Assembly (NCBI GenBank): GCA_963765495.1
Contig: CAVXWP010000012.1
Location: 32,001-96,000 of the forward strand
From: Blastocatellia bacterium
GTDB lineage: Bacteria > Acidobacteriota > Blastocatellia > UBA7656
Reading direction: 5' to 3'
DNA length: 64,000 nucleotides
The notes beneath the pieces were generated by a model. It did no database searches and had not been told where the DNA came from. It saw only the letters and a program-made list of their open reading frames with translations. Made by a program: the position numbers and the translations under genes. Positions 3,444-33,653 of this stretch are shown one piece after another (position 1 is the stretch's first letter; each line of letters starts with the position of its first letter).

Positions 3444-3529
3444 GCGATGCGTGATACGTGATGCGTGATCAGAAAACTTGTGAAGCTTGTCAAAAAGTCC
3501 GGCTCACGAATCGCGAATCACGAATCACG
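3444..3529. repeat. Inverted heptamer array element (CGTGATN)n ... (NATCACG)n
   Basis: GCGATGCGTGATACGTGATGCGTGAT at 3444-3469 and TCACGAATCGCGAATCACGAATCACG at 3504-3529, between divergent genes. Confidence 0.75.
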
Positions 3530-3586
3530 TTCCCCTCCTCAGATGTGTTTGGCTTAATTGCGGCGCGTTCGATATTATCTGAAATT

Positions 3587-4660
3587 ATGGATATGGAAAA
3601 GCCGGTCCGGTATGTCATATTCGGCGCTGGGGCAATTGGCAGCGCGGTTGGCGGGCGTCTCGTTCACGCAGGGCTCTCTGTCGCATTCGTGGCGAGAGCG
3701 CCGCAGGTCGAGGCCTTGAAGCGAGGTATCCTCATCAAGCAGGCGGATACGGAGATTCGCGTGCAGGGCGAGGCCGCGACATCCATCAGCGAGCTTGAAC
3801 CTGACGGCAACGACGTGATTATGATCGTCACAAAATCGCAGGTTACCCGGTTGGTGGTCGAAGAACTCTTCGAGGTTTACGGTCGTCACGCAAATGTGAT
3901 CTGTCTGCAAAACGGCATCCGCAATGAAGAGGTTGCCGCTGAAAGGTTCGATAACGTCTATGCTGCGCTTGTGCTGTTGAGCGCGGTCCAACTGGAACCC
4001 GAAGTAATTACGATGCCGCGCGACAATACCATAGCCCTTTGTCGCTATCCTGACAGGGTTGACGATTTGACCCGCCGATGCGTGGAAGACCTTACCCGCT
4101 CAGGATTCAATGCGCTGGCCTCTGAGCACGTGATGGCAATGAAGTGGGGCAAGCTCGTGGCCAATCTCAACAACGCCACGCACGCCGTAACGGGTTACTG
4201 GCTGGAGCGAGGGCTTGGCGAGCCTGAGATGAGTTGTCTGATGCTGGCGATCCGCGAAGAAGGTTTGCGTGTGCTCGACCGGGCGGGCATCGGTGTCGAG
4301 CCTCCCCCGGATGAGCCTTCGCCTATCAGGATAAGAGAGAACACCGAGCGGCTAAGGCAGCTTTGCCTGAATCCCCGCCCGCAGAGAGATTTGCCGATTG
4401 AGGAACGGACATATCCTTCGATGTGGCAGGACCTTTACCTCGGTCGCAAATCGAACGAGGCTGAATTCTTGAACGGTGAGATAGTCGCCCTCGGAAAGAA
4501 ATACGGCGTTCCCACGCCCTATAATTCCACGCTTTTGGAATTGATCGACCGGATGACAGAAGCGGGAGAAAAGCCCGGAATTTACACGCCCGCCGAGCTT
4601 CACGCCCTGATAAAGTCTCGAACGAACGAGGAGACCGGGCAGGCAAATCAAGGCTGTTGA
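3587..4660 (+). CDS. Ketopantoate reductase (PanE/ApbA) family oxidoreductase
   Basis: GAGAIG Rossmann motif, LQNG, KWGKLVAN, SMWQD and EAEFLNG motifs. Confidence 0.88.
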   Translation: MDMEKPVRYVIFGAGAIGSAVGGRLVHAGLSVAFVARAPQVEALKRGILIKQADTEIRVQGEAATSISELEPDGNDVIMIVTKSQVTRLVVEELFEVYGRHANVICLQNGIRNEEVAAERFDNVYAALVLLSAVQLEPEVITMPRDNTIALCRYPDRVDDLTRRCVEDLTRSGFNALASEHVMAMKWGKLVANLNNATHAVTGYWLERGLGEPEMSCLMLAIREEGLRVLDRAGIGVEPPPDEPSPIRIRENTERLRQLCLNPRPQRDLPIEERTYPSMWQDLYLGRKSNEAEFLNGEIVALGKKYGVPTPYNSTLLELIDRMTEAGEKPGIYTPAELHALIKSRTNEETGQANQGC

Positions 4661-4684
4661 CATCCGAGCGATTGGTGTTATATT
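4657..4684 (+). promoter_or_regulatory. Sigma70-type promoter
   Basis: TTGACA-16nt-TATATT with TG extended -10, upstream of the 4831 gene. Confidence 0.5.
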
Positions 4685-4830
4685 ACGTTTAAGACTGGCA
4701 CCCAGTCAGGCCCCTAATTGACGAAAATTTGATCTCGTTAGCCGGTGGTTGAAAGGCAAAGATAGTCAGTGTGTCTTTGACGAGATGGCTCCTCGGTTTT
4801 CGCCGCCGCTATGTATTTGAGAGGGTGGGA

Positions 4831-5451
4831 ATGATGTACAAAATGAACAGACTGGTCGCGGCAATTATCACTATGCTGATCGTCCTCACATCGCTTCCGG
4901 GCGCATATGCTCAGGCAAGCGCGCAGGACCCTAAAGTCAAAGAGGCGAGCGGCGATGACAACTTTGATCCTATCGAGTTTCTCAATCGATTCAAGCTTGG
5001 AATGAGTTACACAGAGGTGCAGAATCTGCTGCCCAAGAACTTTGACCAGGATATCCTCTCATATATCACGACCGACGAAGTCTTCCTGTTAAACGTAGAC
5101 ATACCGGGCCGGGCCGGCTGGAATGCCTCATTCAAATTCGACACGCTGGACGCGGCCATGCGCAGACCGGAGCAACTGGTCGAGGTAAGTTGCGGTGCGG
5201 CGCTTTCGAGCCGCAGTTCCTCTTTTGAATCCCTTGTCCGCCGAGTCGCAGATGTTTTCGGCGAGCCGGATAAGATGGACAAATCCGAAGATCAGATTCA
5301 GCAGGCTGGCTGGAGGGTTTCGGGCGGGTCTGTCCTGACGCTTGAATACTTCGTTGTGCCGAAGGGGCTGGACGGAAAAGATGTGAGCGTTGATTTCGTC
5401 GTAAAGAAAAACAAGCGGGCGAAATCTTCTCCATCAAAAGACATCGCCTGA
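4831..5451 (+). CDS. Hypothetical secreted protein
   Basis: N-terminal signal peptide (AYA cleavage); GAGAGG SD-like sequence; no family recognised. Confidence 0.7.
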   Translation: MMYKMNRLVAAIITMLIVLTSLPGAYAQASAQDPKVKEASGDDNFDPIEFLNRFKLGMSYTEVQNLLPKNFDQDILSYITTDEVFLLNVDIPGRAGWNASFKFDTLDAAMRRPEQLVEVSCGAALSSRSSSFESLVRRVADVFGEPDKMDKSEDQIQQAGWRVSGGSVLTLEYFVVPKGLDGKDVSVDFVVKKNKRAKSSPSKDIA

Positions 5452-5527
5452 ACCGGATCAATTCTGAACCGGATCAATTCTGAACCGGATCAATTCTGAA
5501 CCGGATCAATTCTGAACCGGATCAACT
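5448..5527. repeat. Tandem repeat, 5 x 16 bp (CTGAACCGGATCAATT)
   Basis: Four exact copies plus one with a single mismatch; the first copy contains the TGA stop of the upstream gene. Confidence 0.95.
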
Positions 5528-5555
5528 CGATTATCTCAGGGAAATAGGTTCATGC

Positions 5556-7877
5556 TTACTGCGCGAGTCCGACACGGTCCGCGAGGTCTGCGAATCTCGC
5601 GTCTTTTCGCAGCGGGTCGAATACGGGGTCTACATTCAGAAAGGCAAGAAAACCGTATCTCTCCTCACAAGCCTTTTCAAGCCACGCAAAAGCCTTGTCT
5701 TTATCGCCGAGGCCGATGTGAATCCTGGCGATAAAGTAGGCGGGGATATATCTCTCTTTCGAAAGTTTGACGAGCGATTTAAGGACCTTTACGGCATCCT
5801 GTTTCCTGCCCGATACGGCATAGGTGTGACCAAGCGCCGCCACGGTTTCAGTATCTTCGCCTGAAAGCCCCACGGCTATTTGAAGATGTGATACGGCATC
5901 CTCATAGCGAGACTGCTGCTCGTATGCCTGCCCGAGGCGACGATGGGCGAGCGCAAATGACGGGTCGAGTTCAAGGGTGCGCCTGTATTGCTCGACGGCT
6001 TCCGGGTAACGTCTGGCCAGATAAAAAACCCATCCTGCGTTTGTGTTTATCGGCAGCGAGAGCGGGTCAATCAATTGCGCGCGTTCTATTTCCGCGAGGG
6101 CTTCATCGAACCTTCCCATTGCCGCCAGATCGAGCGCGTACCAGAGGTGAGCCGTCGCGTAGCCGGGGTTAAGTTTGAGCGCCAGTTGAAATTCCCGTTC
6201 CGCCGCTTTCCAGTCCCAGTCGTAGCCGAGCCGCACGAATGCAAGCGAGGTATGGGCCTCGGCCAGTTGCTCGTCAAGCTCAAGCGCCTTGATTGCCGAG
6301 GTCTTGGCGCGGGTGAAGGCTTCGTGAGGAGGCAGGGCGCTGTAGCTGGCCAGGATGTTATAAGAATCGGCGAGCCCCGCGTAGGCCAGCGCATAATTCG
6401 GGTCCGCTTCGATGGCCCGCTCGAAATACTCTATGCCCTTTTTCACCCCCTCAACCGTTCGCTTGTTCCACGAGTAACGGCCTTTGAGGTAAAGCTGATA
6501 GGCATCGGTCTTTTCGGTATATCGTCTGGTCAGCTTCTTCTTTTCCGCGCCGGTCAGTTTCAATCTCAGCTTGTCGGATATTTCCGTAGAGATCTCTTCT
6601 TCTATGGTAAAGATGTCTGTAAGTTTTCGGTTATACGTTCCGCCCCACAACTGAGAGCCGTCCGAGGTATCGACAAGTTCGGTCTTTATGACGAGCCCGT
6701 CCCCCCTGTGAAGAACCCTGCCTGTAAGGACTGCGCGTACGCCGAGCGAGCGCCCGGTTTCCATAGGATCGATCTCTTTGTCCTTGTAGCGAAAGACGGT
6801 GCTGCGCGCCATCACTCGCAACTCGGGCAATTGCGAGAGGGTGTTGATTATACTCTCCGTGATACCGTCGGAAAGATAATCCATGTCGGAGTCTTTGCTC
6901 GCGTTGATAAGCGGCAGTATGGCCAGAGAGTTTATCTTTTTGCTTGAGCGCTTTTTCTTAGGAGGCTTAATCTCTCCGGTAGCACTTGCGGGCACAAGGT
7001 CTGCCGTTATCGACGCTCGCTGGAGGTTGCGCAAGTCTGTTAAAAGCTCGCGTGCCGATTGATACCGGCGCTCTCGATCCTTCTCAAGACATTTGCGCGC
7101 TATGTGATCGAGATCGGCCGGAACCGAGTAATTAAATCGAGCTATCGCGGGCGGGTTCTTGTGTATGATTCCGTCGATGATTTCGGTGAAGCTCTCTCCA
7201 TCAAACGGCATACGCCCGGTGAGCATTTCATAGATAACCACGCCCAGACTGAACAGGTCCGAGCGGTGATCTACGGTGTGACCGAGCGCCTGCTCGGGCG
7301 ACATATAGGCGACGGTCCCGACGACGATTCCGGCAGAGGTCTGTTTGCTGAGCGGAACCGTGGGCGCATTCTCGTCTTCGAAATCTTCGGTCTCGCCCGG
7401 TGCCTGATCTATAAATTTAGCAAGCCCGAAATCGAGCACCTTTACAAGCCCGCGTTCGTTGATGATCAGGTTAGCGCTCTTGATGTCTCGATGTACGACT
7501 CCCTGCGAGTGGGCTTCGTCAAGCGCATCGGCAACCTGCGCGGCTATGCTCACGACTTCGCGCGCCGAGAGCAGTCCCCGCTCGATTCGCTGGGAGAGCA
7601 TTTCGCCTTCGACATACTCCATAACGATATAGCGCGAGCCTTGATGCTCGCCTATGTCATAGATGGCGGCGATTGAAGGAGAGCGAAGACCGGAAGCGGC
7701 ACGCGCCTCTTTCAGAAACCTCGCACTGCGAACGGGGTCATACTGGTAGGAGGCGGGCAAGAGTTTTAGAGCTATTTGTCGGCCGAGCCTGACGTCTTCG
7801 GCCAGAAAGACCTCTCCCATCCCACCTGCTCCGAGTTTTTTGATTATGCGGTAATGAGAGATAATTTCCGGCGTCAT
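5556..7877 (-). CDS. Hanks-type Ser/Thr protein kinase with TolB-like domain and TPR repeats
   Basis: LGAGGMGEV, ALK, HRDIKSAN, DFG, YMSPEQ; SLAILP TolB-like segment; C-terminal TPRs. Confidence 0.95.
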   Translation of the reverse strand: MTPEIISHYRIIKKLGAGGMGEVFLAEDVRLGRQIALKLLPASYQYDPVRSARFLKEARAASGLRSPSIAAIYDIGEHQGSRYIVMEYVEGEMLSQRIERGLLSAREVVSIAAQVADALDEAHSQGVVHRDIKSANLIINERGLVKVLDFGLAKFIDQAPGETEDFEDENAPTVPLSKQTSAGIVVGTVAYMSPEQALGHTVDHRSDLFSLGVVIYEMLTGRMPFDGESFTEIIDGIIHKNPPAIARFNYSVPADLDHIARKCLEKDRERRYQSARELLTDLRNLQRASITADLVPASATGEIKPPKKKRSSKKINSLAILPLINASKDSDMDYLSDGITESIINTLSQLPELRVMARSTVFRYKDKEIDPMETGRSLGVRAVLTGRVLHRGDGLVIKTELVDTSDGSQLWGGTYNRKLTDIFTIEEEISTEISDKLRLKLTGAEKKKLTRRYTEKTDAYQLYLKGRYSWNKRTVEGVKKGIEYFERAIEADPNYALAYAGLADSYNILASYSALPPHEAFTRAKTSAIKALELDEQLAEAHTSLAFVRLGYDWDWKAAEREFQLALKLNPGYATAHLWYALDLAAMGRFDEALAEIERAQLIDPLSLPINTNAGWVFYLARRYPEAVEQYRRTLELDPSFALAHRRLGQAYEQQSRYEDAVSHLQIAVGLSGEDTETVAALGHTYAVSGRKQDAVKVLKSLVKLSKERYIPAYFIARIHIGLGDKDKAFAWLEKACEERYGFLAFLNVDPVFDPLRKDARFADLADRVGLAQ

Positions 7878-8030
7878 CGTATTTTGGCCTCTGGGCAGCA
7901 AACAGCCGTCAGACTGACGAGGAGTATAGCCGATTAAGCCCTGTGATTGCATGTCAACTCATGATACGCCGGTTCTTGCTATACCAGATGGGTGAAGACA
8001 ATCGTTGAATGTAAACACTCCGCAAAACTT

Positions 8031-8633
8031 TCAGGGCTTCTGCTCCTGCTCTTCTTCCTTCTCTGTACTGAAGAACTCCTGATCCTCTTCGATGACTCGT
8101 CGTTCAAAGCGGGTGATGATATAGACTGTGGCCAGTATGATAACGCCTATGAGAAGAATTATCTGGATGCGATGCAGGTCGCCGATCAGCTTCTCTATTC
8201 CGGTGGCGAAGGTGAATCCCGCCCCGGCCAGTATGCCTACCCAGAGAGCGCAACTTGCCAGCGTGAGCAAAGCGAATTTACCGAATCCGAATTGAGCAAG
8301 CCCCCAGAAGATCGCGCTCGTGGTTCTCAGCCCGTAGACATACTTGACGATAAAGACCGAAAGCACGCCGAATTTCCTCATCAATTTTTCTATGCGAGGA
8401 CGGGCGCGCACAAAAAATTGCAGGGTCCTGGCCCGCTCGCGAAAGCGCGCTCCTATCAGATAGCTCAACGAATCGCCTGCAAAACCGCCTATCGTGCCCA
8501 CAACTAACGCTTCTTCGAGTGAGAAGACACCGGCGCGGGCGAGCACGCCTGCAAGAAGCAGAGTCAAATCGCCTTCGATCATGGTTCCGAAAAATACTGC
8601 CCACAGCCCGTATCTTTGCAGCAGTTCGTACAT
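8031..8633 (-). CDS. DedA family membrane protein
   Basis: GTMIEGD, GDSLSYLIG and KYVYGLR motifs; multiple TM helices. Confidence 0.88.
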   Translation of the reverse strand: MYELLQRYGLWAVFFGTMIEGDLTLLLAGVLARAGVFSLEEALVVGTIGGFAGDSLSYLIGARFRERARTLQFFVRARPRIEKLMRKFGVLSVFIVKYVYGLRTTSAIFWGLAQFGFGKFALLTLASCALWVGILAGAGFTFATGIEKLIGDLHRIQIILLIGVIILATVYIITRFERRVIEEDQEFFSTEKEEEQEQKP

Positions 8634-8949
8634 AGAGACTCAGGACCCGCGAGACGGTTTTGGACCAGCGTCTCTTCGGGTCTGTGGATTGTAGCCTATT
8701 CTGGGCGAATTGACATGTGTTAAATCGAACTGCGCCAGAAAAGGCTTTGCCGGAATTCATAAGAATCCACCTGTATAAAGAGAGCATCCAGGTTGAATCT
8801 TGTCGGATCCTGTGAGTCCTTTCAAAAAAATCAGAGGCTACTGTACGGTCTATGGAGCGGCTGCGGCAAAATTGACAGCCCTTTCTCGCCTTTGTTATTC
8901 TGAAATATCGAGTTAGCTTTCGAAAGTCAGCCGTAAATAAGGACTGTTT

Positions 8950-9930: not shown

Positions 9931-9948
9931 TTTCAATCAGGATCAATT

Positions 9949-11121: not shown

Positions 11122-11169
11122 AAGACCAATATTTATCAGAGAGAGAAGCGCGAGCGCCAGCCCGCAAAT

Positions 11170-11218
11170 CGAAGCGCCGGGTTTCTTTCATTAGTCTTGA
11201 AAGAAACCCGGCGCTTTG
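11170..11218. terminator. Strong hairpin / probable terminator
   Basis: AAGCGCCGGGTTTCTTTCA ... TGAAAGAAACCCGGCGCTT inverted repeat just downstream of the 11243 gene. Confidence 0.6.
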
Positions 11219-11242
11219 ATCGAGCCTCGATAATGGGCGGAC

Positions 11243-11761: not shown

Positions 11762-11800
11762 CCCCTTTTCAGTTGTATAGACCTGAACTGGTCTCAGCCC

Positions 11801-11828
11801 TTAGATGCAGCCCCGCGCTCCAAAGTTC
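11801..11828 (-). promoter_or_regulatory. ECF (sigmaE/AlgU-like) promoter
   Basis: GAACTT-17nt-TCTAA on the minus strand, about 40 nt upstream of the 11761 start. Confidence 0.55.
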
Positions 11829-11959
11829 GATGCCGCATTTATTTATCGGGGCGCTTACATTTACGGTCTGGTTCAAAAAATAACCTGTTGGGCGAACACT
11901 TCAATTCTAGCAGGTCAGACCCATCTGTGACCAGTTGCGGCTCCGCAGATCAAAATCCG

Positions 11960-16001: not shown

Positions 16002-16030
16002 TTGACAAGAAATACCCCTCATATTAGACT
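16002..16030 (+). promoter_or_regulatory. Sigma70 promoter driving the riboswitch-SLT transcript
   Basis: TTGACA-17nt-TAGACT. Confidence 0.7.
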
Positions 16031-16063
16031 GTCAGGGTCGTAATAAGTTGTTTTGAACTGATA

Positions 16064-16270
16064 CCGATAAAGGCACACCAGGAGCGATCCTGGGTCGCAA
16101 AGCCAAGGCCTTTTGAGGGATGAGGGATGAGGGATGAGTGATGAAAAGGATTTTGAGGAAACATTCCAGTAATTGGTTCAACCCATTTACTGGCTCGCGT
16201 CTTTAGAGTCTTTTTCATCCCTCATCCCTCATCCCTCATCCCTCCGGAGGATGTCTGGCCGCCGAAGTCG
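16064..16270 (+). ncRNA. c-di-GMP-I (GEMM) riboswitch with a large insertion in P3
   Basis: P1 CGAT/GTCG; AAAGGCACAC; P2 CCAGGA-GCGA-TCCTGG; GTCGCAAAGCCA; 3' TGGCCGCCGAA. P3 is extended by a repeat hairpin at 16115-16244. Confidence 0.8.
16115..16244. repeat. Inverted heptamer array (GAGGGAT)n ... (ATCCCTC)n inside the riboswitch
   Basis: GAGGGAT x3 + GAGTGAT on the left, ATCCCTC x4 on the right; the inner spacer carries its own hairpin CCAGTAATTGG/CCATTTACTGG. Confidence 0.92.
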
Positions 16271-16426
16271 AGGTTGAAAACGGCTCCCTCCCGGGTTTTC
16301 AACTCCGCCTGGTTATAGTTCCCCGATGTAGCGAGTCTTGAAATTCGCTTTCAACAAACGGCATCGCAAGTCCCTGCTTTTGCGCTGCCTTTGGCTAAAC
16401 ATCTAGCCCCAAGTATCGGAGGAGAT

Positions 16427-17284
16427 ATGAGGACTCTTATAATCTTGCTCGCAGTGATTCTGGTTGGAGTCACGACGAGCGAAGCTCGCGCGCAGGAAGC
16501 GAGCGAATCTTTTAATGCCGAGGCTGCCGCAGTCCTGAAGCCCACGCCTATGATGGTCGCTTACGGTAACGCGGCTCCGGTTGAGAAAGAGAAAAACAAG
16601 TTACCCGCCACGCCGGACGGCAAAGCAGGATTGGCAAAGGATGGCGCGGGAAAAGATGTTGCCGGAAAAGTCGCCACGGGGAAACCCGATGAAGCAGGCA
16701 CTCAAGCTCCGACTGCTCCGCCGCAACAGCCGGTCATTTTGTCGGCCGCCCGCTCAAATACGCAATCATCGAATGTCCCGCTCCAATCTACGGGCAATCC
16801 CGCCTATGACGACCTGGTGATGAAGGCGGCGGCTCGCCACGGCGTAGACCCGAACCTCATCTTTTCGGTCATGCATCAGGAATCGGGATTTAATCCCCGC
16901 GCCCGTTCCTACAAAGGCGCGTCGGGGCTTATGCAGTTGATGCCGGCGACGGCGCGCCGCTTTGGCGTGACCAATATCTTCGACCCGGCACAAAACATTG
17001 ACGCGGGAGCCCGTTATCTTCGACTCCTGCTCGATATGTTCGACGACGATGTAGAGCTTGCGCTTGCGGGCTACAACGCGGGTGAAAACGCCGTGGTCAA
17101 ATCGGGATTCCGCGTTCCGCGTTATCGAGAGACTCAGGATTACGTGCGTATAATTTCATCCAGATACGGGTCGGATAAGCACAGGGGAAACAAGAAAACC
17201 CCGGCCGGTCCCGTAAAGCCTTCGGCCCCGGCAGCCGTCGCCTTTGGCGCGGGGGCAAGCAGTCGTCTTTCAAACAATTACTGA
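16427..17284 (+). CDS. Lytic transglycosylase (SLT domain), exported
   Basis: Signal peptide; catalytic QES, GLMQL, AGYNAG and ETQDYV motifs; GGAGGAG SD. Confidence 0.93.
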   Translation: MRTLIILLAVILVGVTTSEARAQEASESFNAEAAAVLKPTPMMVAYGNAAPVEKEKNKLPATPDGKAGLAKDGAGKDVAGKVATGKPDEAGTQAPTAPPQQPVILSAARSNTQSSNVPLQSTGNPAYDDLVMKAAARHGVDPNLIFSVMHQESGFNPRARSYKGASGLMQLMPATARRFGVTNIFDPAQNIDAGARYLRLLLDMFDDDVELALAGYNAGENAVVKSGFRVPRYRETQDYVRIISSRYGSDKHRGNKKTPAGPVKPSAPAAVAFGAGASSRLSNNY

Positions 17285-20140: not shown

Positions 20141-20178
20141 GGGATTTGAGATCTGAGAAATTTCAAATCTCAAATCCC
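20141..20178. repeat. Short inverted heptamer element (GATTTGA/TCAAATC)
   Basis: GGGATTTGAGAT ... ATCTCAAATCCC. Confidence 0.65.
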
Positions 20179-21600: not shown

Positions 21601-21768
<168 letters not shown>

Positions 21769-21774
<6 letters not shown>

Positions 21775-23412
21775 ATTGGAGATGCTTACGGCTACGGGCG
21801 CTTTGTTGCGCGCTACTTTTAGCGAGACAGCGCCCTGAGTGGTGGAGAACAATGCCCTTAACTCGACAGAATTGACCGGCTCTTTTTCCTGAGCGCCAAC
21901 GATGACATCGCCCGCCTTAAGCCCGGCCTTTTCGGCCGCGCTGCCCGGCTTTACGAGCTTTACCAGTATTCCGCCCGTGGTTCCGAAATAAGCAGCCAGT
22001 TGCGGTGTCAGGTCTTTGCCGATAAATCCCGTGGAGAAGACTATATCCTGCGTTGGGGGATCGTTTCCCTGATTGTCGGCTTTTAATTCCTGTTGATCCG
22101 GTTTTTGTTGGTCGAGCCGCTGTTGATCGAGCGAGCGCATGTTGTCGTAAAGATGCCGAAGCTCTATCTCAAGCTCGCGGAGCGCTTCGTTGCGCTCCTT
22201 CGTTACGGGAACTTTGAGGTAGGCTCTATATTGAGTCCTGAGTTCTTCGATACGTTTTTCGACGTATTCGCGCTGAGTCAGGAAAACGTCGCCTGCCGGC
22301 AGATCGTAAATCATCGGTCCGTTGCAGTCACGAGCGCCAAGCACCACCCCTATATTCAGAAGCTGGTGATTGCGTATAGTCTTCAACGTCACATTGCGGC
22401 CCACGGGCGAGGATGAAAGCAAGGCGCTTAAATCCGTTGTGCCCACTACGTTGTAGTCGCCGAGGCCGACTATCACATCATTGGGCTGTATGCCGCTCGT
22501 CGCTGCGGGGCTATCGGCTATGACCTCGCGCACGATAACGCCTGACTTATCCGTAAGGCCAAGGGTCTCTATTTCCGTCGAAGGAAGTTGCGCCAGGCTG
22601 ACTCCAACAGCGCCGAGCCACCCCGACGGCACATTATCGTTTCTCTCTATGACCCGCTTTGCGATCTGATTGCGTATCAGATCAATCGGGAACAGGTAGG
22701 CGCGTCCAAATCCCGCGTATTGCGTCATGCCGACTATCTGATTTGCGGTATTGGTCACTATGCTGCTGTCGTTGCGCGAGAGCAAACCTTTGGAATAGAG
22801 CGTGAGCGCGCCACGCGCTTTCGAGTATATGCTGTCGGGTTCTATCTCTCCGCTTGTTATTTTGACCGAAGGGTCAAGATAAAACTGGTTGTTCTTTTCG
22901 GCCGGCGCTGCCTTGGGCACGAAATCCACGCTCAGTATCTTCACCTCTTCTTTGCCCGAAGCCACGGCAGTAAATGCATTATCCGGCAGATTCACCTTTA
23001 GCGAATCTGCTTCAAGCACGGCAAAGCCTGTGGCGCAATCAACCCCTACAAGTCGCGCCGCCCGCCTGTATCCGTCGTCGGTTGTGATTGAAATCTTCTG
23101 ATTTTTATCCTCGGGGTCAAGGTTGGTCAGGCGGGTTACAACATGGCCCTGATTATCTACAACCAGGCCCGTCACGACATTGATTATATTGTCGGGCGCA
23201 GACCCCGGCACGCCGAGTCGAACATCCTGCCGCGCGCGTATGCGCTCAAGCAGCTTGTGCAAATCCACGACGTGTACGACCGAAACGATGAGCGGCGATT
23301 TGCCGCTTGCGTAAGGAGGTGTCTGAGGCTGCTGGGCAAACATTGTCCCGGCCGCCTGCAAGATCAATAGATATACTGCTACTACCCTTTTCACCATAGA
23401 TGAAAAATTCAA
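21769..23412 (-). CDS. HtrA/DegP-like protein with two PDZ domains and degenerate catalytic triad
   Basis: Signal peptide; trypsin-like scaffold; GWLG PDZ entry; SPAATSGIQPNDVI and SAAEKAGLKAGDVI PDZ motifs; no TNxH, D or GNSGG. Confidence 0.8.
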
Positions 23413-25118: not shown

Positions 25119-25223
25119 CATATCTTTTGCGCTGAAGGGCTTTTTTGTGTGATTATAACTGTTAAGTCTGAACCACCAGTCGCGCATAGTCCGGGCCTGT
25201 TCGCCCGGCTGGAAAGCTTTGGG

Positions 25224-25751: not shown

Positions 25752-25766
25752 AGGAGTAGTAAGACA

Positions 25767-25952
25767 ATGCCAAATCCTAAAAGGAAACATTCGAAATCTC
25801 GCACAGGAAAGCGCAGGGCGCACGATCACCTGCAACCCCCCGCCGTTGGAAATTGCCCTAACTGCGGCGAACCGAAGATGCCGCACCGCGTCTGTCCTAA
25901 TTGCGGGTTTTATCGGGGCCGCGTGGCCATCGAGATGAAAGAAGAAGAGTAA
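25767..25952 (+). CDS. rpmF: 50S ribosomal protein bL32 (Zn-binding form)
   Basis: PNPKRKHSKSR...CPNCGE..PHRVCPNCGFY. Confidence 0.97.
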   Translation: MPNPKRKHSKSRTGKRRAHDHLQPPAVGNCPNCGEPKMPHRVCPNCGFYRGRVAIEMKEEE

Positions 25953-26018
25953 GTCTCTTCGGCGGGCGCGCCTTTAAGGCTGCATCTTTAACCGCCTCTC
26001 TGACTTAGAGATTATTTA

Positions 26019-27056
26019 ATGCTTAGGATCGCTGTGGATGCAATGGGAGGCGATCACGCTCCCACAAGCGAGGTCGAAGGAGCCATCGAGGCCGTGCGTG
26101 ACCTCGGTGTTTCAGTAATCCTCGTGGGACGATCCGAAGAGATCAAGACGCAGCTTGAAAAGCACCGCGACGGCCGGGGCAAGAGGGAACACCTGTGGCG
26201 TGATTCGCAAATAGAGATTGTTGATGCGCGCGAGGTCATCACTATGGATGATCCGGTTGCAACAGCCGTCCGCCGCAAACGCAACAGTTCGATTCGCGTC
26301 GCGGCAAACCTCGTGCGTCACGGTGAGGCCGAGGCGCTTGTGAGCGCGGGAAACACGGGCGCGGTGATGATGACGGCAAAGCTTGTGATCGGCACGCTTC
26401 CAAAGGTCGACCGCCCGGCGCTTGCAGCCGTGTTGCCTACTATCACGGGACGAAGCACCGTGTTGCTCGACGTAGGGGCGAACGCCGAATGCAAGCCGTC
26501 GCACCTGCGCGATTTTGCCGTTATGGGATCGCTCTATTCGAGCGTGGTTGTAGGCATTCACAACCCTCGGGTAGGGCTTCTCTCGATTGGCGAAGAAGAG
26601 ATCAAGGGCAACGACCTGACAAAAGAAGCGTTCAAGCTGCTGAAGAGTTCGTCGCTGAATTTTATCGGCAACATCGAGGGCCGCGACATGTGTACGGGGC
26701 AGGCCGATGTGATCGTTTGTGATGGATTCACGGGCAATGTCGCGCTAAAAGTGAGCGAAGGCGTATTCGAATTCATTATGGGCCTGCTCAAACAGGAATT
26801 GAAATCGTCGCTCCAGACAAAGGCAGGCGCAGTGCTTACGCGGCCTGCCTTTCAGCGATTCAAGCAACGGCTGGATTACGCCGAATTCGGCGGCGCTCCG
26901 CTTTTGGGAATCAAAGGCGTCACGGTCATCTGCCACGGACGTTCAACTCCAAGAGCCATTCGAAACGCCATCGCCGTAGCCAGGGATTATTGTCTCGGAG
27001 ATGTCAACGAACGGATCGGACTTGAGATAGGCGTGCCGGTGATCAGTGGTCAGTGA
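26019..27056 (+). CDS. plsX: Phosphate acyltransferase PlsX
   Basis: IAVDAMGGDHAP, SAGNTGA, LDVGAN, DGFTGN, GGAPLLG and HGRS motifs. Confidence 0.97.
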   Translation: MLRIAVDAMGGDHAPTSEVEGAIEAVRDLGVSVILVGRSEEIKTQLEKHRDGRGKREHLWRDSQIEIVDAREVITMDDPVATAVRRKRNSSIRVAANLVRHGEAEALVSAGNTGAVMMTAKLVIGTLPKVDRPALAAVLPTITGRSTVLLDVGANAECKPSHLRDFAVMGSLYSSVVVGIHNPRVGLLSIGEEEIKGNDLTKEAFKLLKSSSLNFIGNIEGRDMCTGQADVIVCDGFTGNVALKVSEGVFEFIMGLLKQELKSSLQTKAGAVLTRPAFQRFKQRLDYAEFGGAPLLGIKGVTVICHGRSTPRAIRNAIAVARDYCLGDVNERIGLEIGVPVISGQ

Positions 27057-27169
27057 TCGGTGGTCAGTGATCGGTGAAAAGACAGGGCGATTATGAAAAC
27101 GAAGAGGTTTAATTTGATGAGCCGGAAAGTTATTACACCTGGCTACCGGCCACCGGCCACCGATCACTG
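27037..27169. repeat. Inverted heptamer array (CRGTGRT)n ... (CACYGRY)n between plsX and fabD
   Basis: Six units at 27037-27077 containing the plsX stop; inverted units at about 27136-27169 ending 3 nt before the fabD ATG. Confidence 0.85.
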
Positions 27170-27172
27170 CTT

Positions 27173-28126: not shown

Positions 28127-28209
28127 TTAGGGCGCGGTCTTCTTTCATGATTTAACCCGGCGCTGTAGTGATTTGACTAATTTTTTGGAAACGTTAGGAG
28201 GAGTTACAA

Positions 28210-28452
28210 ATGTCAGAAGGTTCCGTTGAGGCAAAGGTTACACAGATAATAATGGACGAGCTTGGGGTAGACGAGTCGGAAGTGACCGCCAATGCTCGTT
28301 TTATTGATGATCTAGGCGCTGATTCGCTCGATACGGTAGAACTCGTTATGCGGTTCGAAGAAGAGTTCAATATCGAAATACCGGATGAGGACGCTGAAAA
28401 GATAACCAGCGTGCGCGATGCGGTTGATTACATCGAGAAGCATTCCAAATAA
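28210..28452 (+). CDS. acpP: Acyl carrier protein
   Basis: [11 protein letters not shown] phosphopantetheine site; AGGAGGAG SD. Confidence 0.97.
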
Positions 28453-28490
28453 GCGATTCCCGAAGGGAAGCGTTTCTCTGGTTGGAGGTT

Positions 28491-29750
28491 ATGGCTTTGA
28501 ATCGTCGTGTTGTTATTACAGGTATAGGTCTCATTTGCGGCTCGGGCAATACCAAGGAAGAAGTCTGGTCGGATCTGCTTGCCGGGCGCAGTGAAATCTC
28601 TCACATCACCCGGTTCGACGTCAGCAACTTCCCCGTACGCATTGCCAGCGAAGTGAAAAATTTTGACCCCTTGAATTTCATAGAAAAGAAAGAGGTCAAG
28701 AAGATGGACGTCTTCATCCACTACGCGCTGGCAGCGGCGCAAGAAGCAATGGATGATTCCGGTTTGCGCGTCACGGATGAAAACGCGACGCGCATCGGAA
28801 CCTACATAGGTTCGGGCATAGGCGGATTTGGGGTGATCGAGCGCGAGCACGCGAAGTTCTTAAATCATGGGCCGGGCAAGATATCGCCCTTCTTTATCCC
28901 TGCCGCCATTGTAAACCTTGCGGCGGGCCAGGTCTCGATACGCTTTCGGGCCAAGGGGCCAAATTCAGCCACGTGCACAGCCTGCTCTACGGGGGCGCAC
29001 GCGGTCGGCGACAGCTTCAAGATCATTCAGCGCGGGGACGCGGACGCGATGATTTGCGGCGGGGCGGAGGCCGCCATCACTCCCATGGGAGTGGGTGGAT
29101 TCGCCGCTATGCGGGCGCTCTCTACGCGCAACGATGATCCCGAGCATTCCAGTCGTCCGTTTGACGCCGACCGCGACGGTTTCGTCATAGGCGAAGGCGC
29201 GGGCATACTGATCCTCGAAGAGCTAGAGCACGCCCGGGCGCGCGGGGCAAAGATTTACGCCGAGATGGCCGGCTACGGCATGTCGTCGGATGCGTTTCAC
29301 ATCACCCAGCCGTCGGAAGACGGGGATGGCGCCGTTCGGGTGATGCAAAACGCGATCAAGGACGCCGGCGTTGAGACGCACGAGGTTGATTACATCAACG
29401 CGCACGGCACCTCGACCCACTACAACGACAAGCTCGAAACGATGGCCATCAAGCGGGTCTTCGGCGATTCGGCGTACTCGATTCCGGTCAGTTCCACCAA
29501 ATCCATGATGGGGCATCTGCTGGGCGCTGCGGGCGGAGTCGAGGCGGGCGTGATTGCCCTGGCACTTCAGAATCAGGTTATACCGCCCACGGCGAATTAT
29601 GAAAAACCCGACCCTGATTGCGACCTAGATTATGTGCCGAACACCGCGAGGCGGGTCTCGATTCGTTACGCGCTTTCGAATTCGTTTGGGTTTGGCGGCA
29701 CAAACGCTGCCCTGCTGATGAAGCGATTCGAGCAGTCAAACGAAAGCTGA
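28491..29750 (+). CDS. fabF: 3-oxoacyl-ACP synthase II
   Basis: TACSTG, NAHGTST, GHLLGAAG, NSFGFGG; GGAGG SD before ATG 28491. Confidence 0.97.
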   Translation: MALNRRVVITGIGLICGSGNTKEEVWSDLLAGRSEISHITRFDVSNFPVRIASEVKNFDPLNFIEKKEVKKMDVFIHYALAAAQEAMDDSGLRVTDENATRIGTYIGSGIGGFGVIEREHAKFLNHGPGKISPFFIPAAIVNLAAGQVSIRFRAKGPNSATCTACSTGAHAVGDSFKIIQRGDADAMICGGAEAAITPMGVGGFAAMRALSTRNDDPEHSSRPFDADRDGFVIGEGAGILILEELEHARARGAKIYAEMAGYGMSSDAFHITQPSEDGDGAVRVMQNAIKDAGVETHEVDYINAHGTSTHYNDKLETMAIKRVFGDSAYSIPVSSTKSMMGHLLGAAGGVEAGVIALALQNQVIPPTANYEKPDPDCDLDYVPNTARRVSIRYALSNSFGFGGTNAALLMKRFEQSNES

Positions 29751-29870
29751 AGCCGTCCGGGCTCTGAATCGGTTAACGCGCCGCAGCGATTATCTTTGCA
29801 GGCAGTCCGGGCGAGAAACGGTCTCGCCCGTGGATTTTTCTACGCCGGGGATTTATCGAAAAGGAAAGAC

Positions 29871-30653
29871 ATGAACATAGTCGTTTGTTTGAAGCAGGTG
29901 CCGAAAAAAGATTCGATCCTGAGGATCGCGCCCGATGGAAAATGGATTGACGAGCGCGACATCAGTTATGAAATGAGCGAGGCCGACGCCTACGCGCTCG
30001 AAGAGGCGCTCAGACAGAAAGAGAAACACGGGGGCGAAGTCATAGTGATCTCGTGCGGGCCTGAGCGGGTGAGGCAGTCAATCAAAGAAGCGCTCGCAAA
30101 GGGCGCGGACCGCGCCATCCACCTTCACGATCCCATCTTTGACACTGCTACGGATGCTCAAGCTTTAGGGCGGCTGCTTGCCGCCGCGCTCAAGGACGAG
30201 AAATTCGATCTGGTCTTTACCGGCCTGCAATCGGATGATTACGGTTACGCGCAGGTGGGTCTTATCATCGCCGAGCGACTCGGGATAGCCTCGGCTACAA
30301 TCGTCATGGAAGTACAGCCGGAGGCACCTTCGGTGCGGGTAAAGCGCGAGCTTGAGAGCGGATGGTTTCAGTGGGTTAAGGTGCCTATGCCTGCGCTGCT
30401 CACGATCCAATCCGGCATCAATCAGCTTCGATACGCCACACTCAAAGGCATCATGGCGGCGAAGAAAAAAGAGATACGAGAAGTCAAGGCGGCTGACCTC
30501 GGCTTGACGGCCGAAGACCTCAAACCCGGTCAGACAATCGAGCGCACATACCTGCCCGAAAAATCGAAACAGACCGAAATGATCGAAGGCAAGCCATCCG
30601 AGATCGCGGCCAAGCTGGTTGAGAAACTGCGCTTCGACGTGAGAGTCATCTGA
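29871..30653 (+). CDS. etfB: Electron transfer flavoprotein beta subunit
   Basis: VCLKQVP, YALEEAL, GADRA, LRYATLKGIM. Confidence 0.93.
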   Translation: MNIVVCLKQVPKKDSILRIAPDGKWIDERDISYEMSEADAYALEEALRQKEKHGGEVIVISCGPERVRQSIKEALAKGADRAIHLHDPIFDTATDAQALGRLLAAALKDEKFDLVFTGLQSDDYGYAQVGLIIAERLGIASATIVMEVQPEAPSVRVKRELESGWFQWVKVPMPALLTIQSGINQLRYATLKGIMAAKKKEIREVKAADLGLTAEDLKPGQTIERTYLPEKSKQTEMIEGKPSEIAAKLVEKLRFDVRVI

Positions 30654-30766
30654 TTTTGGATTTTGGATTTTGGATTGACGATGCGAAAGGCAGGTTTAGC
30701 TTCTGGTTATAAATCCAAAATCGCGCCGCGACGAAGTCGCATCATGCGCCACGAAAATCCAAAATC
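30652..30766. repeat. Inverted heptamer array (GATTTTG)n ... (CAAAATC)n between etfB and etfA
   Basis: Left array 30652-30676 begins in the etfB stop; right array is split into 30712-30722 and 30755-30766. Confidence 0.88.
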
Positions 30767-30781
30767 CCAGAGGGGGGATTG

Positions 30782-31774
30782 ATGAGCGAAGGAATACTAC
30801 TTTTCATTGAGCAAAGAGACGGCGTGCTGAATCGCACTTCATTTGAAGCGATGGTTGCGGCTCAACGGATTGCAACGGAGACGGGCGATAAAGTATCTGC
30901 CGTCGTGCTTGGCAAAGGCATATCGAATGTCGCCCAGGAAGTGGCCGCAAAAAAGCTCGAAACCGTCTATACGGTCGAGGACGACAAGCTTGCCAGCTAC
31001 ACGCCTGACGGATATGTGGGCGCGCTCAGGCAGGTCGTTGAAAAACTCGATCCGCGATATGTCATCCTGAGCCACACTTATCGCGTGCGCGATTTCGCGC
31101 CGAGGCTTGCCGTGGCGCTTGGCAAATCGTTTGTGACCGACTGCATAGCCATTCGTGGTGAAGGTAGCGAAATGGTCTTTACGCGGCAGGTCTTTCAGGG
31201 CAAGATCAACACGGATGTTCGAGTCGAAGCCGCCCCGCCTGTGTTTGTATCATTTCAGGCTGGCTCATACAGAGCGGACCTTGCCGAAGCGGGAGACGCA
31301 ACCGCGCCCGTCAAATCGTTTGAGGTGAATATGGCCGATGTCAATATTCGCACCGAGAACGAAGAGCCGTTTCAGGAAGCCAAACAGGCGGTTGACCTCA
31401 CGCAGGCACCGCTCATCGTGGCCGTGGGCCGGGGTATCAAGAGCGAAGAGAACATCGCGATTGTCAAGGAACTGGCAGAAGCACTCGGAGCCGAGATTGC
31501 CGCCTCGCGCCCTATCTGCGATAACGAATGGCTGCCAATGGACCGCCAGATAGGAAGCTCCGGCCAGACCGTAGCGCCAAAACTCTACTTGGCCGTAGGC
31601 ATCTCAGGCGCGATTCAGCACGTGGTCGGCATGAAAAATTCTCAGACGATAGTCGCCATAAACAAAGACCCCGAAGCGCCTATCTTCGATCTGGCCGATT
31701 ACGGGATCGTGGGCGACCTGTTCGAAATAGTGCCCGCGCTCACAGCCGAGATTCGCCAGGCCAAAGGACAGTGA
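30782..31774 (+). CDS. etfA: Electron transfer flavoprotein alpha subunit
   Basis: VGRG, AASRP, QIGSSGQTV, GISGAIQH and AINKD motifs. Confidence 0.95.
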   Translation: MSEGILLFIEQRDGVLNRTSFEAMVAAQRIATETGDKVSAVVLGKGISNVAQEVAAKKLETVYTVEDDKLASYTPDGYVGALRQVVEKLDPRYVILSHTYRVRDFAPRLAVALGKSFVTDCIAIRGEGSEMVFTRQVFQGKINTDVRVEAAPPVFVSFQAGSYRADLAEAGDATAPVKSFEVNMADVNIRTENEEPFQEAKQAVDLTQAPLIVAVGRGIKSEENIAIVKELAEALGAEIAASRPICDNEWLPMDRQIGSSGQTVAPKLYLAVGISGAIQHVVGMKNSQTIVAINKDPEAPIFDLADYGIVGDLFEIVPALTAEIRQAKGQ

Positions 31775-31777
31775 TGG

Positions 31778-31910
31778 AGGGGGCCGGGGGTCGGGGGCCG
31801 GGGGCCGGTGATTACATATCGGCATATGGTCTAAAATTCTCCAGATGTATTTCAAAAACCGGCCACAGAAAAACAACTACCGGCCCCTGGCCCCCGACCC
31901 CCGGCCCCCT
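31778..31910. repeat. Inverted heptamer array (GGGGGCC)n ... (GGCCCCC)n between etfA and ETF-QO
   Basis: 32-bp arms at 31778-31809 and 31879-31910, complementary except for one G-U pair; AT-rich spacer. Confidence 0.93.
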
Positions 31911-31918
31911 TAAAGATT

Positions 31919-33598
31919 ATGGCAATTGAGAGAGAACAACTTGAAATGGATGTCCTGCTTGTGGGAGCAGGACCGGCTAATCTATCGTGCGCGCTCCATC
32001 TGGCCAACCTGATTTCGGCGCACAACGAACGCGCAAAACAGGGGGGCGGAAAGCCTCTGGGCGATGTCGAGATCGCCGTGATAGAGAAGGCCGCGGAAAT
32101 AGGCGCGCACCAGCTTTCAGGAGCGGTGCTTGATCCCGTAGCGCTTCGTGAACTCATCCCGGATTTCGAAAAAGACGCGCCGCTTGAAGCGCCTGTGGGC
32201 AGCGAAAAGGTGTACTTTTTGACCGAGAGCGGGAAGCTGTCGGCTCCGATGATCCCGCCGCCGCTTCGCAATCACGGCAACTACGTCATATCGCTTAATA
32301 AGCTCGTAGTGTGGCTGGCCGGGAAATGCGAAGCGGCGGGCATCAATATCTTTCCTGAATTCCCGGGCTGGGAAATGCTCTACGAGGGCGATCAGGTCAC
32401 GGGCGTGCGGACGGGCGACAAGGGTATAGACAAAAACGGGAAGCCAAAACCCAATTTCGAGCCCGGCGTGGACATCCTCGCAAAGGTGACCGTGCTCGGA
32501 GAGGGCGTGCGAGGCTCGCTCACCAAACAACTCGTCAATCATCTGGGCCTTGACCGCGAGAGCGAGCCCCAGGTTTATTCGGTCGGCGTCAAAGAACTAT
32601 GGGAAATGCCCGATGACAGGTTTGCGGCGGGCTCGGTGATTCACACGCTGGGCTGGCCACTGGATTCGCACACATTCGGCGGGTCGTGGGTTTACGGCAT
32701 GCGCGACCGGATCATCGACATAGGGCTCGTGGTCGGTCTCGATTATCGAGACCCGCGAATCGACCCGCATCACGAGTTTCAAAGATTCAAGACCCACCCG
32801 CTTGTAAAAGACCTGCTCAAGGGCGGAAAGATGATCCGCTACGGAGCAAAGGCCATGCCCGTGGGCGGCTGGTACACGATGCCGCAGTTGAGCGCGGATG
32901 GAGTGATGATTCTGGGCGATTCGGGCGCGATGCTCAACGGCGAGCGGCTCAAGGGGATTCACACGGCGATAAAAGCCGGGATACTTGCCGCCGAGACGAT
33001 TCTGGAGGCTCTTATAGCTGGCGATCACTCGCGCAACAAACTGGGCGCTTTTGATAAGAAGCTGAAAGAGAGCTACGTCGGACGCGAGCTTTATCGCTCG
33101 CGCAATTTCCATCAGGCATTTGATAGAGGCCGTTTCGTTGGGCTTGCCATTTCGGGACTTTCGACCGTTTCGGGCGGGCGCTTCCCGTCGCGGCTTGCGA
33201 TCAAGGCCGGTCATCAGCATATGCGAAAGCTTGCCGATGTTGATGGAGCAGGCGACCGCTACAATGATCTCAAATACGATGATGAGATCACATTTGCCAA
33301 GCTGACCGATGTCTATTATTCGAGCACGCATCACGACGAGGATCAGCCGTCTCATTTAAAGGTGCTCGATACAAACATCTGCGTCGATCGCTGCACAAAG
33401 GAATACGGCAACCCTTGCGAGAATTTCTGCCCGGCAAATGTCTATGAGATGGTCGAGGCCGGAGAGGGCCAGCGAAGGCTTCAGGTGAATTTCTCGAATT
33501 GCGTGCATTGCAAGACGTGCGACATCATGGACCCGTATCAAATCATAAACTGGGTTCCACCCGAAGGCGGCGGCGGGCCGAATTATCGCAACATGTGA
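31919..33598 (+). CDS. Electron transfer flavoprotein-quinone oxidoreductase
   Basis: VGAGPA FAD motif, HQLSGA, KGIHTA, 4Fe-4S CPANVY...CVHCKTC and GGGPNY. Confidence 0.95.
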   Translation: MAIEREQLEMDVLLVGAGPANLSCALHLANLISAHNERAKQGGGKPLGDVEIAVIEKAAEIGAHQLSGAVLDPVALRELIPDFEKDAPLEAPVGSEKVYFLTESGKLSAPMIPPPLRNHGNYVISLNKLVVWLAGKCEAAGINIFPEFPGWEMLYEGDQVTGVRTGDKGIDKNGKPKPNFEPGVDILAKVTVLGEGVRGSLTKQLVNHLGLDRESEPQVYSVGVKELWEMPDDRFAAGSVIHTLGWPLDSHTFGGSWVYGMRDRIIDIGLVVGLDYRDPRIDPHHEFQRFKTHPLVKDLLKGGKMIRYGAKAMPVGGWYTMPQLSADGVMILGDSGAMLNGERLKGIHTAIKAGILAAETILEALIAGDHSRNKLGAFDKKLKESYVGRELYRSRNFHQAFDRGRFVGLAISGLSTVSGGRFPSRLAIKAGHQHMRKLADVDGAGDRYNDLKYDDEITFAKLTDVYYSSTHHDEDQPSHLKVLDTNICVDRCTKEYGNPCENFCPANVYEMVEAGEGQRRLQVNFSNCVHCKTCDIMDPYQIINWVPPEGGGGPNYRNM

Positions 33599-33653
33599 AA
33601 GGATAAAGGATGAATGCGGCGCATCCAGCGCCGCATTCATCCTTTATCCTTTC
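33597..33653. terminator. Perfect 26-bp hairpin with AAAGGAT heptamer arms
   Basis: GAAAGGATAAAGGATGAATGCGGCGC-ATCCA-GCGCCGCATTCATCCTTTATCCTTTC, starting inside the stop codon. Confidence 0.8.

Follow-up and report, generated by a model that had tools for sequence, protein, structure and literature searches.

Polar palindromic heptamer arrays at gene junctions in Blastocatellia

A 64-kb stretch of the genome of a soil bacterium (Blastocatellia, Acidobacteriota), referred to here as the window, carries seven main elements of one design: 2–6 tandem 7-mers, a unique spacer of 5–111 nucleotides (nt), and a run of the reverse-complemented unit (Table 1). An earlier note, made from the sequence alone, had described inverted heptamer-array elements at seven places in the window, and all seven are present as described. 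Across the window and its relatives, polar palindromic heptamer arrays are a class-wide feature of Blastocatellia. We read them as DNA-level passengers, not as genes or as a sequence-specific transposon family.

Elements 4–7 sit in the run yceD-plsX-fabD-acpP-fabF-etfB-etfA-ETF-QO. The 5′ array of element 4 covers the last ~6 codons and the stop (27054–27056) of plsX, and its 3′ arm ends 3 nt upstream of the fabD ATG (27173). Element 5 takes its first bases from the etfB stop TGA (30651–30653) and has a 3′ arm in two parts (30711–30722 and 30754–30768), so placed that the tail before the etfA ATG (30782) is a Shine-Dalgarno stretch only. Element 6 begins 4 nt past the etfA stop and leaves 9 nt, free of any Shine-Dalgarno motif, in front of the ETF-QO ATG (31919); a GTC variant unit is mirrored in both of its arms, which enclose a 68-nt AT-rich spacer (35% GC). 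The stem of element 7, made of two copies of AAAGGAT outside and a GC-rich hairpin inside, overlaps the ETF-QO stop (33596–33598). Elsewhere in the window, element 1 occupies the divergent gap between a hydrolase gene, whose minus-strand ATG (3434–3436) is abutted by the C-rich strand, and a panE-family reductase gene starting at 3587. All 133 nt of element 2 form one hairpin of −91 kcal/mol. Element 3 lies between genes for an M50 peptidase and a DegP/HtrA-like PDZ protein (neighbors assigned with Pfam and NCBIfam), the 3′ arm holding the stop of the latter (21769–21771, minus strand). The stops of plsX, etfB, ETF-QO, and the DegP/HtrA-like gene thus all fall inside arrays, and gene context confirms that three of the seven elements lie between co-transcribed housekeeping genes, both points having been raised in the earlier note. 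The C-terminal residues of PlsX (27037–27056) and of the DegP/HtrA-like protein (21769–21777) are array-encoded; arrays have therefore reshaped gene ends.

Table 1. Positions of the heptamer elements and related features in the window (z, RNA fold of the feature relative to shuffles, 200 of them for elements 1–7)
Feature	Position	Strand	Arms or arrays	Unit and description	Score
Element 1	3444–3530		3446–3470 / 3504–3530	GTGATNC, ~3.4 copies, 33-nt spacer	z −4.18
Element 2	16113–16245		16113–16144 / 16214–16245	GAGGGAT, ~4.4 copies per arm	z −15.84
Element 3	21601–21777		21601–21637 / 21749–21777	AGGCAGT, ~4.7 copies, 111-nt spacer, ~3.6 inverted copies	z −6.17
Element 4	27037–27169		27037–27077 / 27141–27169	CRGTGRT, ~5.6 copies, ~65-nt spacer, imperfect inverted array	z −3.07
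Element 5	30651–30768		30651–30677 / 30754–30768	GGATTTT, ~3.6 copies	z −3.57
Element 6	31779–31909		31779–31810 / 31880–31909	GGGGGCC, ~4.3 copies per arm	z −10.05
Element 7	33597–33653		33597–33622 / 33628–33653	Perfect 26-bp stem, 5-nt loop	z −13.28
Small relative	20141–20178			Two-unit hairpin, GGGATTT / GAGATCT, 6-nt loop	z −5.58
Mini-palindrome	30723–30753	+		31 nt, GC-rich, inserted in the C-rich 3′ arm of element 5
Copied stretch	21703–21729	+		27 nt in the spacer of element 3, identical to 45365–45391, ~57 nt alignable
Palindromic element	45346–45452		45356–45391 and 45420–45444	9–10-nt CGGAT-containing units, G-rich arm first	−66.5 kcal/mol, z −10.06
c-di-GMP-I-GGC aptamer match (RF03167)	16063–16267	+		Model positions 1–80 of 80	36.9 bits (gathering score 59), E 2e-7

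Period 7 stands out in the window by several independent measures. It accounts for 15 of the 47 rows returned by Tandem Repeats Finder and for eight arrays of at least 2.5 copies, compared with two at period 5, three at period 6, and none at periods 8–12. Strict inverted pairs of period-7 arrays number five, against none in each of 20 dinucleotide shuffles, and pairs at other periods stay at the shuffle level. A separate search for inverted repeats of at least 16 nt returned 20, of which 15 belong to heptamer elements, and all seven main elements out-fold their 200 shuffles (z −3.1 to −15.8). Of four weaker elements also listed in the earlier note, the one at 20141–20178 stands as a small relative; those at 43775, 48288, and 50720 form no significant hairpin by RNA fold against shuffles (z −0.65, −1.0, and −1.35).

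The wider survey covered 80 loci retrieved with EtfA (58–84% identity) from Blastocatellia/Acidobacteriota metagenome-assembled genomes, 1.2 Mb in total and ~20 kb or less per relative; together with the window, which represents its own genome by 64 kb, the catalogue draws on 1.27 Mb. The operon order is syntenic in ~40 of the 80 loci. Several loci (L005, L011, L013, L016, L040, L052–L054, L058, L059, L064, L068, and L073) carry Clostridia, Heliomicrobium, or Heliobacteriaceae titles. Their EtfA is 62–81% identical to that of Blastocatellia, and those long enough to compare (L005, L016, and L040) have the same operon order; these bins were probably mislabelled.

In the relatives, 152 arrays of three or more copies have period 7, and 27, 19, 5, 0, and 0 have periods 5, 6, 8, 9, and 10, respectively. 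A reverse-complement array within 300 nt, the pairing criterion, follows downstream of 140 arrays, compared with one in the reversed-sequence control. Of the 220 arrays that reach 21 nt, 195 are paired (three in the control), and several of the 25 unpaired ones lie at contig ends. The elements are thus far more frequent than in composition-matched shuffles of the window and than in the control for the relatives. Two loci carry the same architecture on an 8-nt unit, with a different unit variant in each arm (L075 4430–4582 and L076 9829–10000), so that period 7 is dominant, not exclusive.

The merged catalogue holds 121 elements, the window's seven included, with a median length of 87 nt, 2–6 (rarely more than 20) tandem copies per arm, and spacers of 1–263 nt (median 35 nt). 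All 121 flank called genes rather than lie inside them, overlaps of a few codons excepted. None encloses an open reading frame (ORF), as had been suggested for longer copies: the longest spacer, 263 nt overall and 111 nt in the window, is too short for a gene. The spacers are poorer in GC than the whole (49% vs. 56%) and mostly unstructured (median z −0.22, with z < −2 in just 16 of 82), and on these values we rejected the reading of spacers as a continuation of the palindrome.

What is conserved is the period and the fold-back geometry, not the sequence. The 121 elements use 75 distinct units, the commonest being GGATTTT (11) and GGATTGC (9). To describe the units as unrelated is nevertheless only partly right: GGAT is present in 31 of the 121, compared with 7.1 (SD 2.5) in shuffled units, and 5′ arms are poor in C. 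Within one mismatch, 110 of the 121 units recur in other genomes, a number not clearly above chance for C-poor 7-mers and not used here. Element ends showed no boundary motif (GTAG in 13 of the 121 units vs. 7.0, SD 2.6, when shuffled; CGTC in none). Stop codons are not enriched in the units (53 of 121 vs. 58.9, SD 4.6, when shuffled), and the type of the upstream stop gives no signal (TAG 22, TAA 19, and TGA 22 at occupied junctions vs. 58, 66, and 61 at the others).

The arms are strongly polar. The 5′ arm has more G than C in 113 of the 121 elements, less in seven, and equal amounts in one, and its overall composition is 27% A, 32% G, 29% T, and 11% C. Because each element is an inverted repeat, the G-rich arm comes first on both strands. 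Ratios of G-first to C-first elements are 86:6 in co-directional, 10:1 in convergent, and 15:0 in divergent gaps, the numbers outside co-directional gaps being small; other perfect hairpins in the same DNA are divided only 102:73. Avoidance of Rho, under which polarity was expected to be laxer outside operons, was rejected on the convergent and divergent ratios, small as these numbers are.

Pairing and polarity together are what a repeat-writing form of repair would produce. Here, both 3′ ends at a break, such as one left by cleavage of a hairpin, would be extended toward the center with the same G-rich heptamer and then joined by filler. Near-obligate pairing would follow in one step; polarity would follow as well, the strands whose 3′ ends face the center being G-rich and C-poor in all gene contexts; and so would unique spacers made partly of captured fragments, and the regeneration of a site with a different unit. 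We nevertheless regard this account as improbable. It is pure inference with no enzyme candidate, and we know of no bacterial process of this kind. The coexistence of many units in one genome disfavors a single template, and the arm-specific homogenization described below shows that ordinary slippage acts too. Fold-back priming through self-pairing of units with G-T pairs allowed was considered and rejected, with a score of 4.50 vs. 4.49 in shuffled units that lends repeat writing no specific support.

The edges of the elements are as regular as their polarity. Gene ends were curated at the junctions that hold 63 of the elements. In 47 of these, the array begins from −6 to +5 nt relative to the point where the intergenic DNA starts, and stop-codon bases are included in 24 of the 47; in 42, at most 16 nt separate its end from the next start. 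On one side the edge coincides exactly with the stop codon, and on the other with the ribosome-binding site or start codon: What is left before the start at etfB|etfA is the Shine-Dalgarno stretch alone, and at plsX|fabD and etfA|ETF-QO 3–10 nt without such a motif. By rough gene calls in a sample centered on one operon, elements occupy 10.6% of 897 co-directional, 5.7% of 247 divergent, and 4.6% of 238 convergent gaps.

Such placement invites the view that the elements are selected at the RNA level, for mRNA stability or processing, for translational coupling from stop to start, or as arrays of a protein-binding motif. The transcript hairpins are very stable (−30 to −90 kcal/mol), and their edges at stops and at ribosome-binding sites or starts, including 3′ arms that end just short of starts lacking a Shine-Dalgarno motif, count in favor of this view. 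The preference for co-directional gaps, as estimated from those rough calls, and the enrichment of GGAT point the same way, as does the structure of long gaps that carry no flagged element (z < −2 in 16 of 24 at etfB|etfA and in 12 of 16 at etfA|ETF-QO). Strand-specific RNA selection, however, found no support. Among 93 co-directional elements, the stronger fold is that of the sense RNA in 48 and that of the antisense RNA in 43 (P = 0.78), with 211 G-U pairs in sense and 192 in antisense folds. The equality of sense and antisense folds makes complementarity a DNA-level property from which the RNA hairpins follow. Gaps of only 1–15 nt stand empty at these junctions in many species, which makes the hairpin dispensable; arms can decay while the element stays, as in L019; the unit is not conserved between close species; and polarity is equally strict outside operons. 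We therefore consider selected RNA function unlikely as the explanation. By analogy, the transcript hairpins probably act like the intercistronic hairpins of repetitive extragenic palindromes (REPs), yet are dispensable.

Still less can be said for slipped intrinsic terminators or for the G-quadruplex repeats proposed for Xanthomonas, and we think either very unlikely. A simple scan does call element 7 terminator-like, but a T-rich tail follows only this one of the seven main elements, three of the seven lie inside operons, and occupancy is lowest in convergent gaps, the proper place for terminators. In favor of quadruplexes, the window units GAGGGAT and GGGGGCC have G-runs 7 nt apart; against them, GGG occurs in just 13 of the 121 units.

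Alignment of orthologous junctions revealed discrete presence, absence, and replacement of elements rather than gradual drift of terminators, and with it the empty sites that the earlier note had proposed to look for. Elements occupy plsX|fabD in 13 of 35 loci (the median gap being 92 nt in these and 32 nt in the others), etfB|etfA in 29 of 75, etfA|ETF-QO in 18 of 55, fabD|acpP in 3 of 39, and acpP|fabF in 0 of 39. Sister species often have a unit in common (L047/L055, L020/L021, L030/L012, and L010/L019). Yet within one clade of ~90% etfA identity, the same gap is either empty (13 nt, L073) or filled with one of three unrelated units. Loci L027 and L028 (~87.5% DNA identity) share an identical empty gap at plsX|fabD and are alignable at fabD|acpP, yet at each of the two etf junctions their elements are unrelated.

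Change within arms is visible on a finer scale. The elements of L047 and L055 differ by single substitutions. Those of L010 and L019 differ in copy number, and the 3′ arm of L019 has been homogenized to a variant unit, and the minimum free energy is −71.5 kcal/mol in the former and −36.9 kcal/mol in the latter. The two arms have been homogenized independently in L075 and L076, and L008 and L015 carry single-unit hairpins of common unit types. Gain, loss, and replacement at fixed orthologous gaps are thus accompanied by changes of copy number and unit variant per arm between sister species, and these comparisons demonstrate slippage within arms.

We tentatively favor, with rather less than even confidence, the reading that the elements are DNA-level palindromic microsatellites that slippage extends and replaces and that persist only where they can be folded out of the transcript. 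A site would be seeded by a short hairpin or a small insertion, and an arm would then grow by replication slippage in 7-nt steps. Arms would be kept matched by intrastrand template switching (quasi-palindrome correction), by selection for foldability, or by both; quasi-palindrome correction is an established mutational mechanism, and it is on this ground that we propose template switching. Loops may break and be repaired with filler DNA, which would keep spacers unique; the capture of two copied fragments, described below, suggests such turnover. Purifying selection would remove copies that do not fold out of the mRNA, and survivors would then be those that span the distance from a stop codon to the following start or that lengthen a riboswitch stem. 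The earlier idea that a hairpin makes insertions neutral at the RNA level accords with the observed placement in stop-to-start gaps and in a riboswitch loop.

Several observations weigh against this slippage reading. Arm lengths are only moderately correlated (r = 0.40), and tests of whether the arms mirror each other in the order of their variant units gave P ≤ 0.05 in 6 of 73 cases, with ~3.7 expected. The 7-nt period and the G-first polarity are left unexplained and are treated as properties of the slippage or repair machinery; a polarity of 113:7 in all contexts points to a directional generating process beyond plain slippage. Unit sharing amounts to 24.8% of 145 pairs within loci and 5.7% of 7,115 pairs between loci, which independent growth in situ does not predict. 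The replacements between L027 and L028 would call for loss and regrowth twice within ~12% divergence, for which one-step insertion would be simpler. Copying and pasting of fragments does occur, judging from the sequence matches below, and the gaps, which hold dispersed REP-like palindromes in other species, do behave as landing sites. Finally, with at most ~20 kb sampled per relative, identical copies elsewhere in a genome would not have come into view.

Comparison of 94 spacers yielded one real shared stretch, the 31-nt mini-palindrome in element 5. For the 27-nt stretch in the spacer of element 3, two exact matches were counted, compared with none in 100 shuffles, and by sequence it is a copied fragment of another palindromic element (45346–45452), of which the matching copy is the 5′ half. 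Relatives of that palindrome occur at etfA|ETF-QO in L016 and L044, and the family is conserved, with members at loci that differ from species to species. The 31-nt insert in element 5 has a counterpart in another species: At a different junction, a GGATTTT-type element carries an insert (L028 5266–5305) that matches it at 95% identity over 42 nt. It looks like a very small mobile insert that targets arrays. Its GC-rich palindrome motif is rare, with two loose matches in the window (0.67 expected) and three in 2 of the 80 loci. The etfB|etfA and etfA|ETF-QO gaps of other species also hold REP-like GC-rich palindromes, several of them starting with GTAG: One family occurs in L004, L022, L025, and L032, and another in L033, L025, and L044, with at least three places in the L033 locus. 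None of these was found in the window.

These patterns would also be expected of a nonautonomous family moved in trans by an enzyme that recognizes structure and is encoded elsewhere in the genome, such as a RAYT/TIRYT-like HUH transposase. Stop-to-start gaps would receive hairpins as complete units, with slippage modifying the copies only afterward. Discrete presence, absence, and replacement between conserved flanks, unit sharing ~4 times as high within as between genomes, and fragment copies both within the window and between species are consistent with such mobility, as are the REP-like palindromes in the same gaps and the multiple places of one of their families in a single locus. Across 20-kb loci, the number of elements is over-dispersed (index 1.56, P = 0.02; zero in 7 of 35 loci), and excerpts of a published survey report that Acidobacteria have TIRYT genes, which are RAYT-like, and that stop codons can be supplied by REP ends (Di Nocera 2013, PMC3733652). 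The absence of a terminal tag or boundary motif at the catalogued elements argues against it, and the unique spacers and 75 units would demand recognition that is very relaxed or purely structural. Pfam identified no transposase-like domain, and hence no RAYT (IS200/IS605-type) gene, among the 61 ORFs of the window, and no target-site duplication is visible at the site compared among L073, L047, L051, and L060, a cross-species comparison that is weak. We regard trans mobilization as possible but doubtful. The earlier proposal of a mobile family or an enzyme-driven mechanism is partly supported: Turnover at orthologous gaps agrees with it, whereas no enclosed ORF, no transposase-like domain among the window's 61 ORFs, no conserved ends, and no shared spacers of the kind expected were found.

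Two more specific classes were considered and set aside. Miniature inverted-repeat transposable elements do not fit, as internal sequences are not conserved and no target-site duplication is visible at that one weak cross-species site. Neither do REPs or REPINs, there being no near-identical copies (75 units in 121 elements), shared spacers, or GTAG/CGTC tag within the sampled DNA.

Element 2 appears to lie within a riboswitch. The c-di-GMP-I-GGC aptamer match covers the full model, its second stem-loop interrupted by element 2 as an insertion of 137 nt; upstream lies a promoter-like site (16002–16030), and downstream a gene for an SLT-domain transglycosylase (16391–17284). At the Rfam gathering threshold, the window has no matches, and a tRNA search likewise returned none. 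The putative aptamer is visible only below the gathering score because of the heptamer hairpin in that stem-loop, and at an E-value threshold, heptamer hairpins also draw meaningless microRNA-precursor matches. The earlier placement of this element inside a riboswitch stem is accordingly plausible, given a full-length match, with the insertion, at a subthreshold score. Elements of this kind alter gene ends, can disrupt riboswitch detection with Rfam, and will confuse predictions of terminators and small RNAs in Acidobacteria genomes.

Bacterial heptamer repeats have been on record for decades, and to our knowledge no account of their origin or function has gained acceptance. The regularities described here (pairing, polarity, edges at stops and ribosome-binding sites, and rapid turnover) make them a testable problem. 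They raise the questions of whether a directional mechanism generates the repeats and whether hairpins of 100 nt are tolerated because stop and start stay adjacent. Should slippage followed by selective filtering be all that lies behind the arrays, they would be an unremarkable instance of selfish or neutral DNA.

The closest published counterpart is in Xanthomonas, and the comparisons that follow draw on excerpts of the cited reports. Arrays of the heptamer GGGAATC form 70 and 75 convergent inverted pairs in two Xanthomonas genomes (Rehm 2015, PMC4692102). Like the Blastocatellia elements, these pairs consist of tandem heptamers of ~4 units, are intergenic, and lie mostly between aligned ORFs; we take "convergent" there to mean that the G-rich arm comes first, which is the Blastocatellia polarity. 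In both groups, the G-rich array lies at most 50 bp after a stop (sense) or before a start (antisense), and the repeats vary in length and sequence between close species. The Xanthomonas pairs differ in belonging to one unit family (GGGNATC), for which quadruplex potential is central, compared with the 75 units and scarce GGG of Blastocatellia, and in coming from a different phylum (PMC4692102). The Blastocatellia elements are the same kind of object as the Xanthomonas pairs; what is new is the phylum, the many units, the near-obligate pairing, and the strict polarity. The earlier suggestion of an undescribed system is thus not wholly upheld, convergent heptamer pairs at the same stop and start positions having been described in that report (Rehm 2015, PMC4692102). 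It also relays an older suggestion that heptamers reflect the segment of DNA held by the polymerase. More speculatively, a dedicated DNA-level process could write G-rich heptamer arrays centerward from both sides, creating polar pairs de novo at permissive gaps. It would operate in both Blastocatellia and Xanthomonas and perhaps underlie the heptamer repeats of cyanobacteria and other phyla. We rate this broader proposal as unlikely; were it true, polarity, near-obligate pairing, fragment-bearing spacers, and regeneration with a new unit would be its footprints.

Other known systems share parts of the design. The short tandemly repeated repetitive (STRR) sequences of cyanobacteria, like the Blastocatellia arrays, comprise several intergenic tandem heptamer units per genome, often beside start codons (PMC4692102; preprint 10.1101/2022.06.06.494920). 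The Blastocatellia arrays show the period-7 excess and the intergenic dispersal by which STRR sequences are recognized, in a host that is not cyanobacterial. Only a few of the Nostoc heptamers are described as paired (PMC4692102), unlike the 195 of 220 long arrays here, and Nostoc heptamer repeats affect reporter expression (preprint 10.1101/2022.06.06.494920). The TAACTGA repeats of marine Beggiatoaceae, patchily distributed across phyla, resemble our elements as 2–6-copy intergenic heptamers ending a few nt before starts; in contrast to them, they use one unit in direct arrays oriented to the downstream gene, with one inverted case in 170 sets (MacGregor 2015, PMC4679880). REPs and bacterial interspersed mosaic elements are likewise small extragenic palindromes 3′ of ORFs and between unidirectional ORFs that may supply a stop, vary in presence between species, and probably form RNA hairpins (Di Nocera 2013, PMC3733652; Bertels and Rainey 2011, PMC3116915). 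As excerpted, these reports describe REPs as near-identical families with a GTAG/CGTC tag and a transposase gene, none of which was seen in the Blastocatellia sample. The palindromic microsatellites of Fusarium mitochondria, proposed to be mobile, also place a tandem repeat before its complement and are optional between close species, but they are mononucleotide (A)n/(T)n runs in organelles without the 7-nt period (Ponts 2020, PMC7218506). Geobacter metallireducens has dispersed elements of four heptanucleotides in 49 copies, one class of which is drawn as fold-backs; unlike the Blastocatellia elements, they form conserved families alignable by BLAST, with some copies inside genes (PMC2700814). 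Our literature search, outside of which subscription journals fell, found no report joining heptamer repeats with Acidobacteria or Blastocatellia.

The window also holds repeats of other kinds. A perfect tandem repeat of a 16-nt unit (5448–5525, 4.9 copies) starts at the stop of the ORF at 4771–5451, in a convergent gap before a Ser/Thr kinase-TPR gene. Perfect intergenic tandem repeats of a 13-nt unit (39727–39765, three copies) and of a 14-nt unit (48293–48330, 2.7 copies) have no inverted partner. Near-perfect ordinary hairpins lacking 7-nt periodicity occur at 11168–11220, 49031–49092, and 50661–50712, with arms of 23, 17, and 21 nt, respectively, and the last of these begins at the end of the ORF at 50244–50663.

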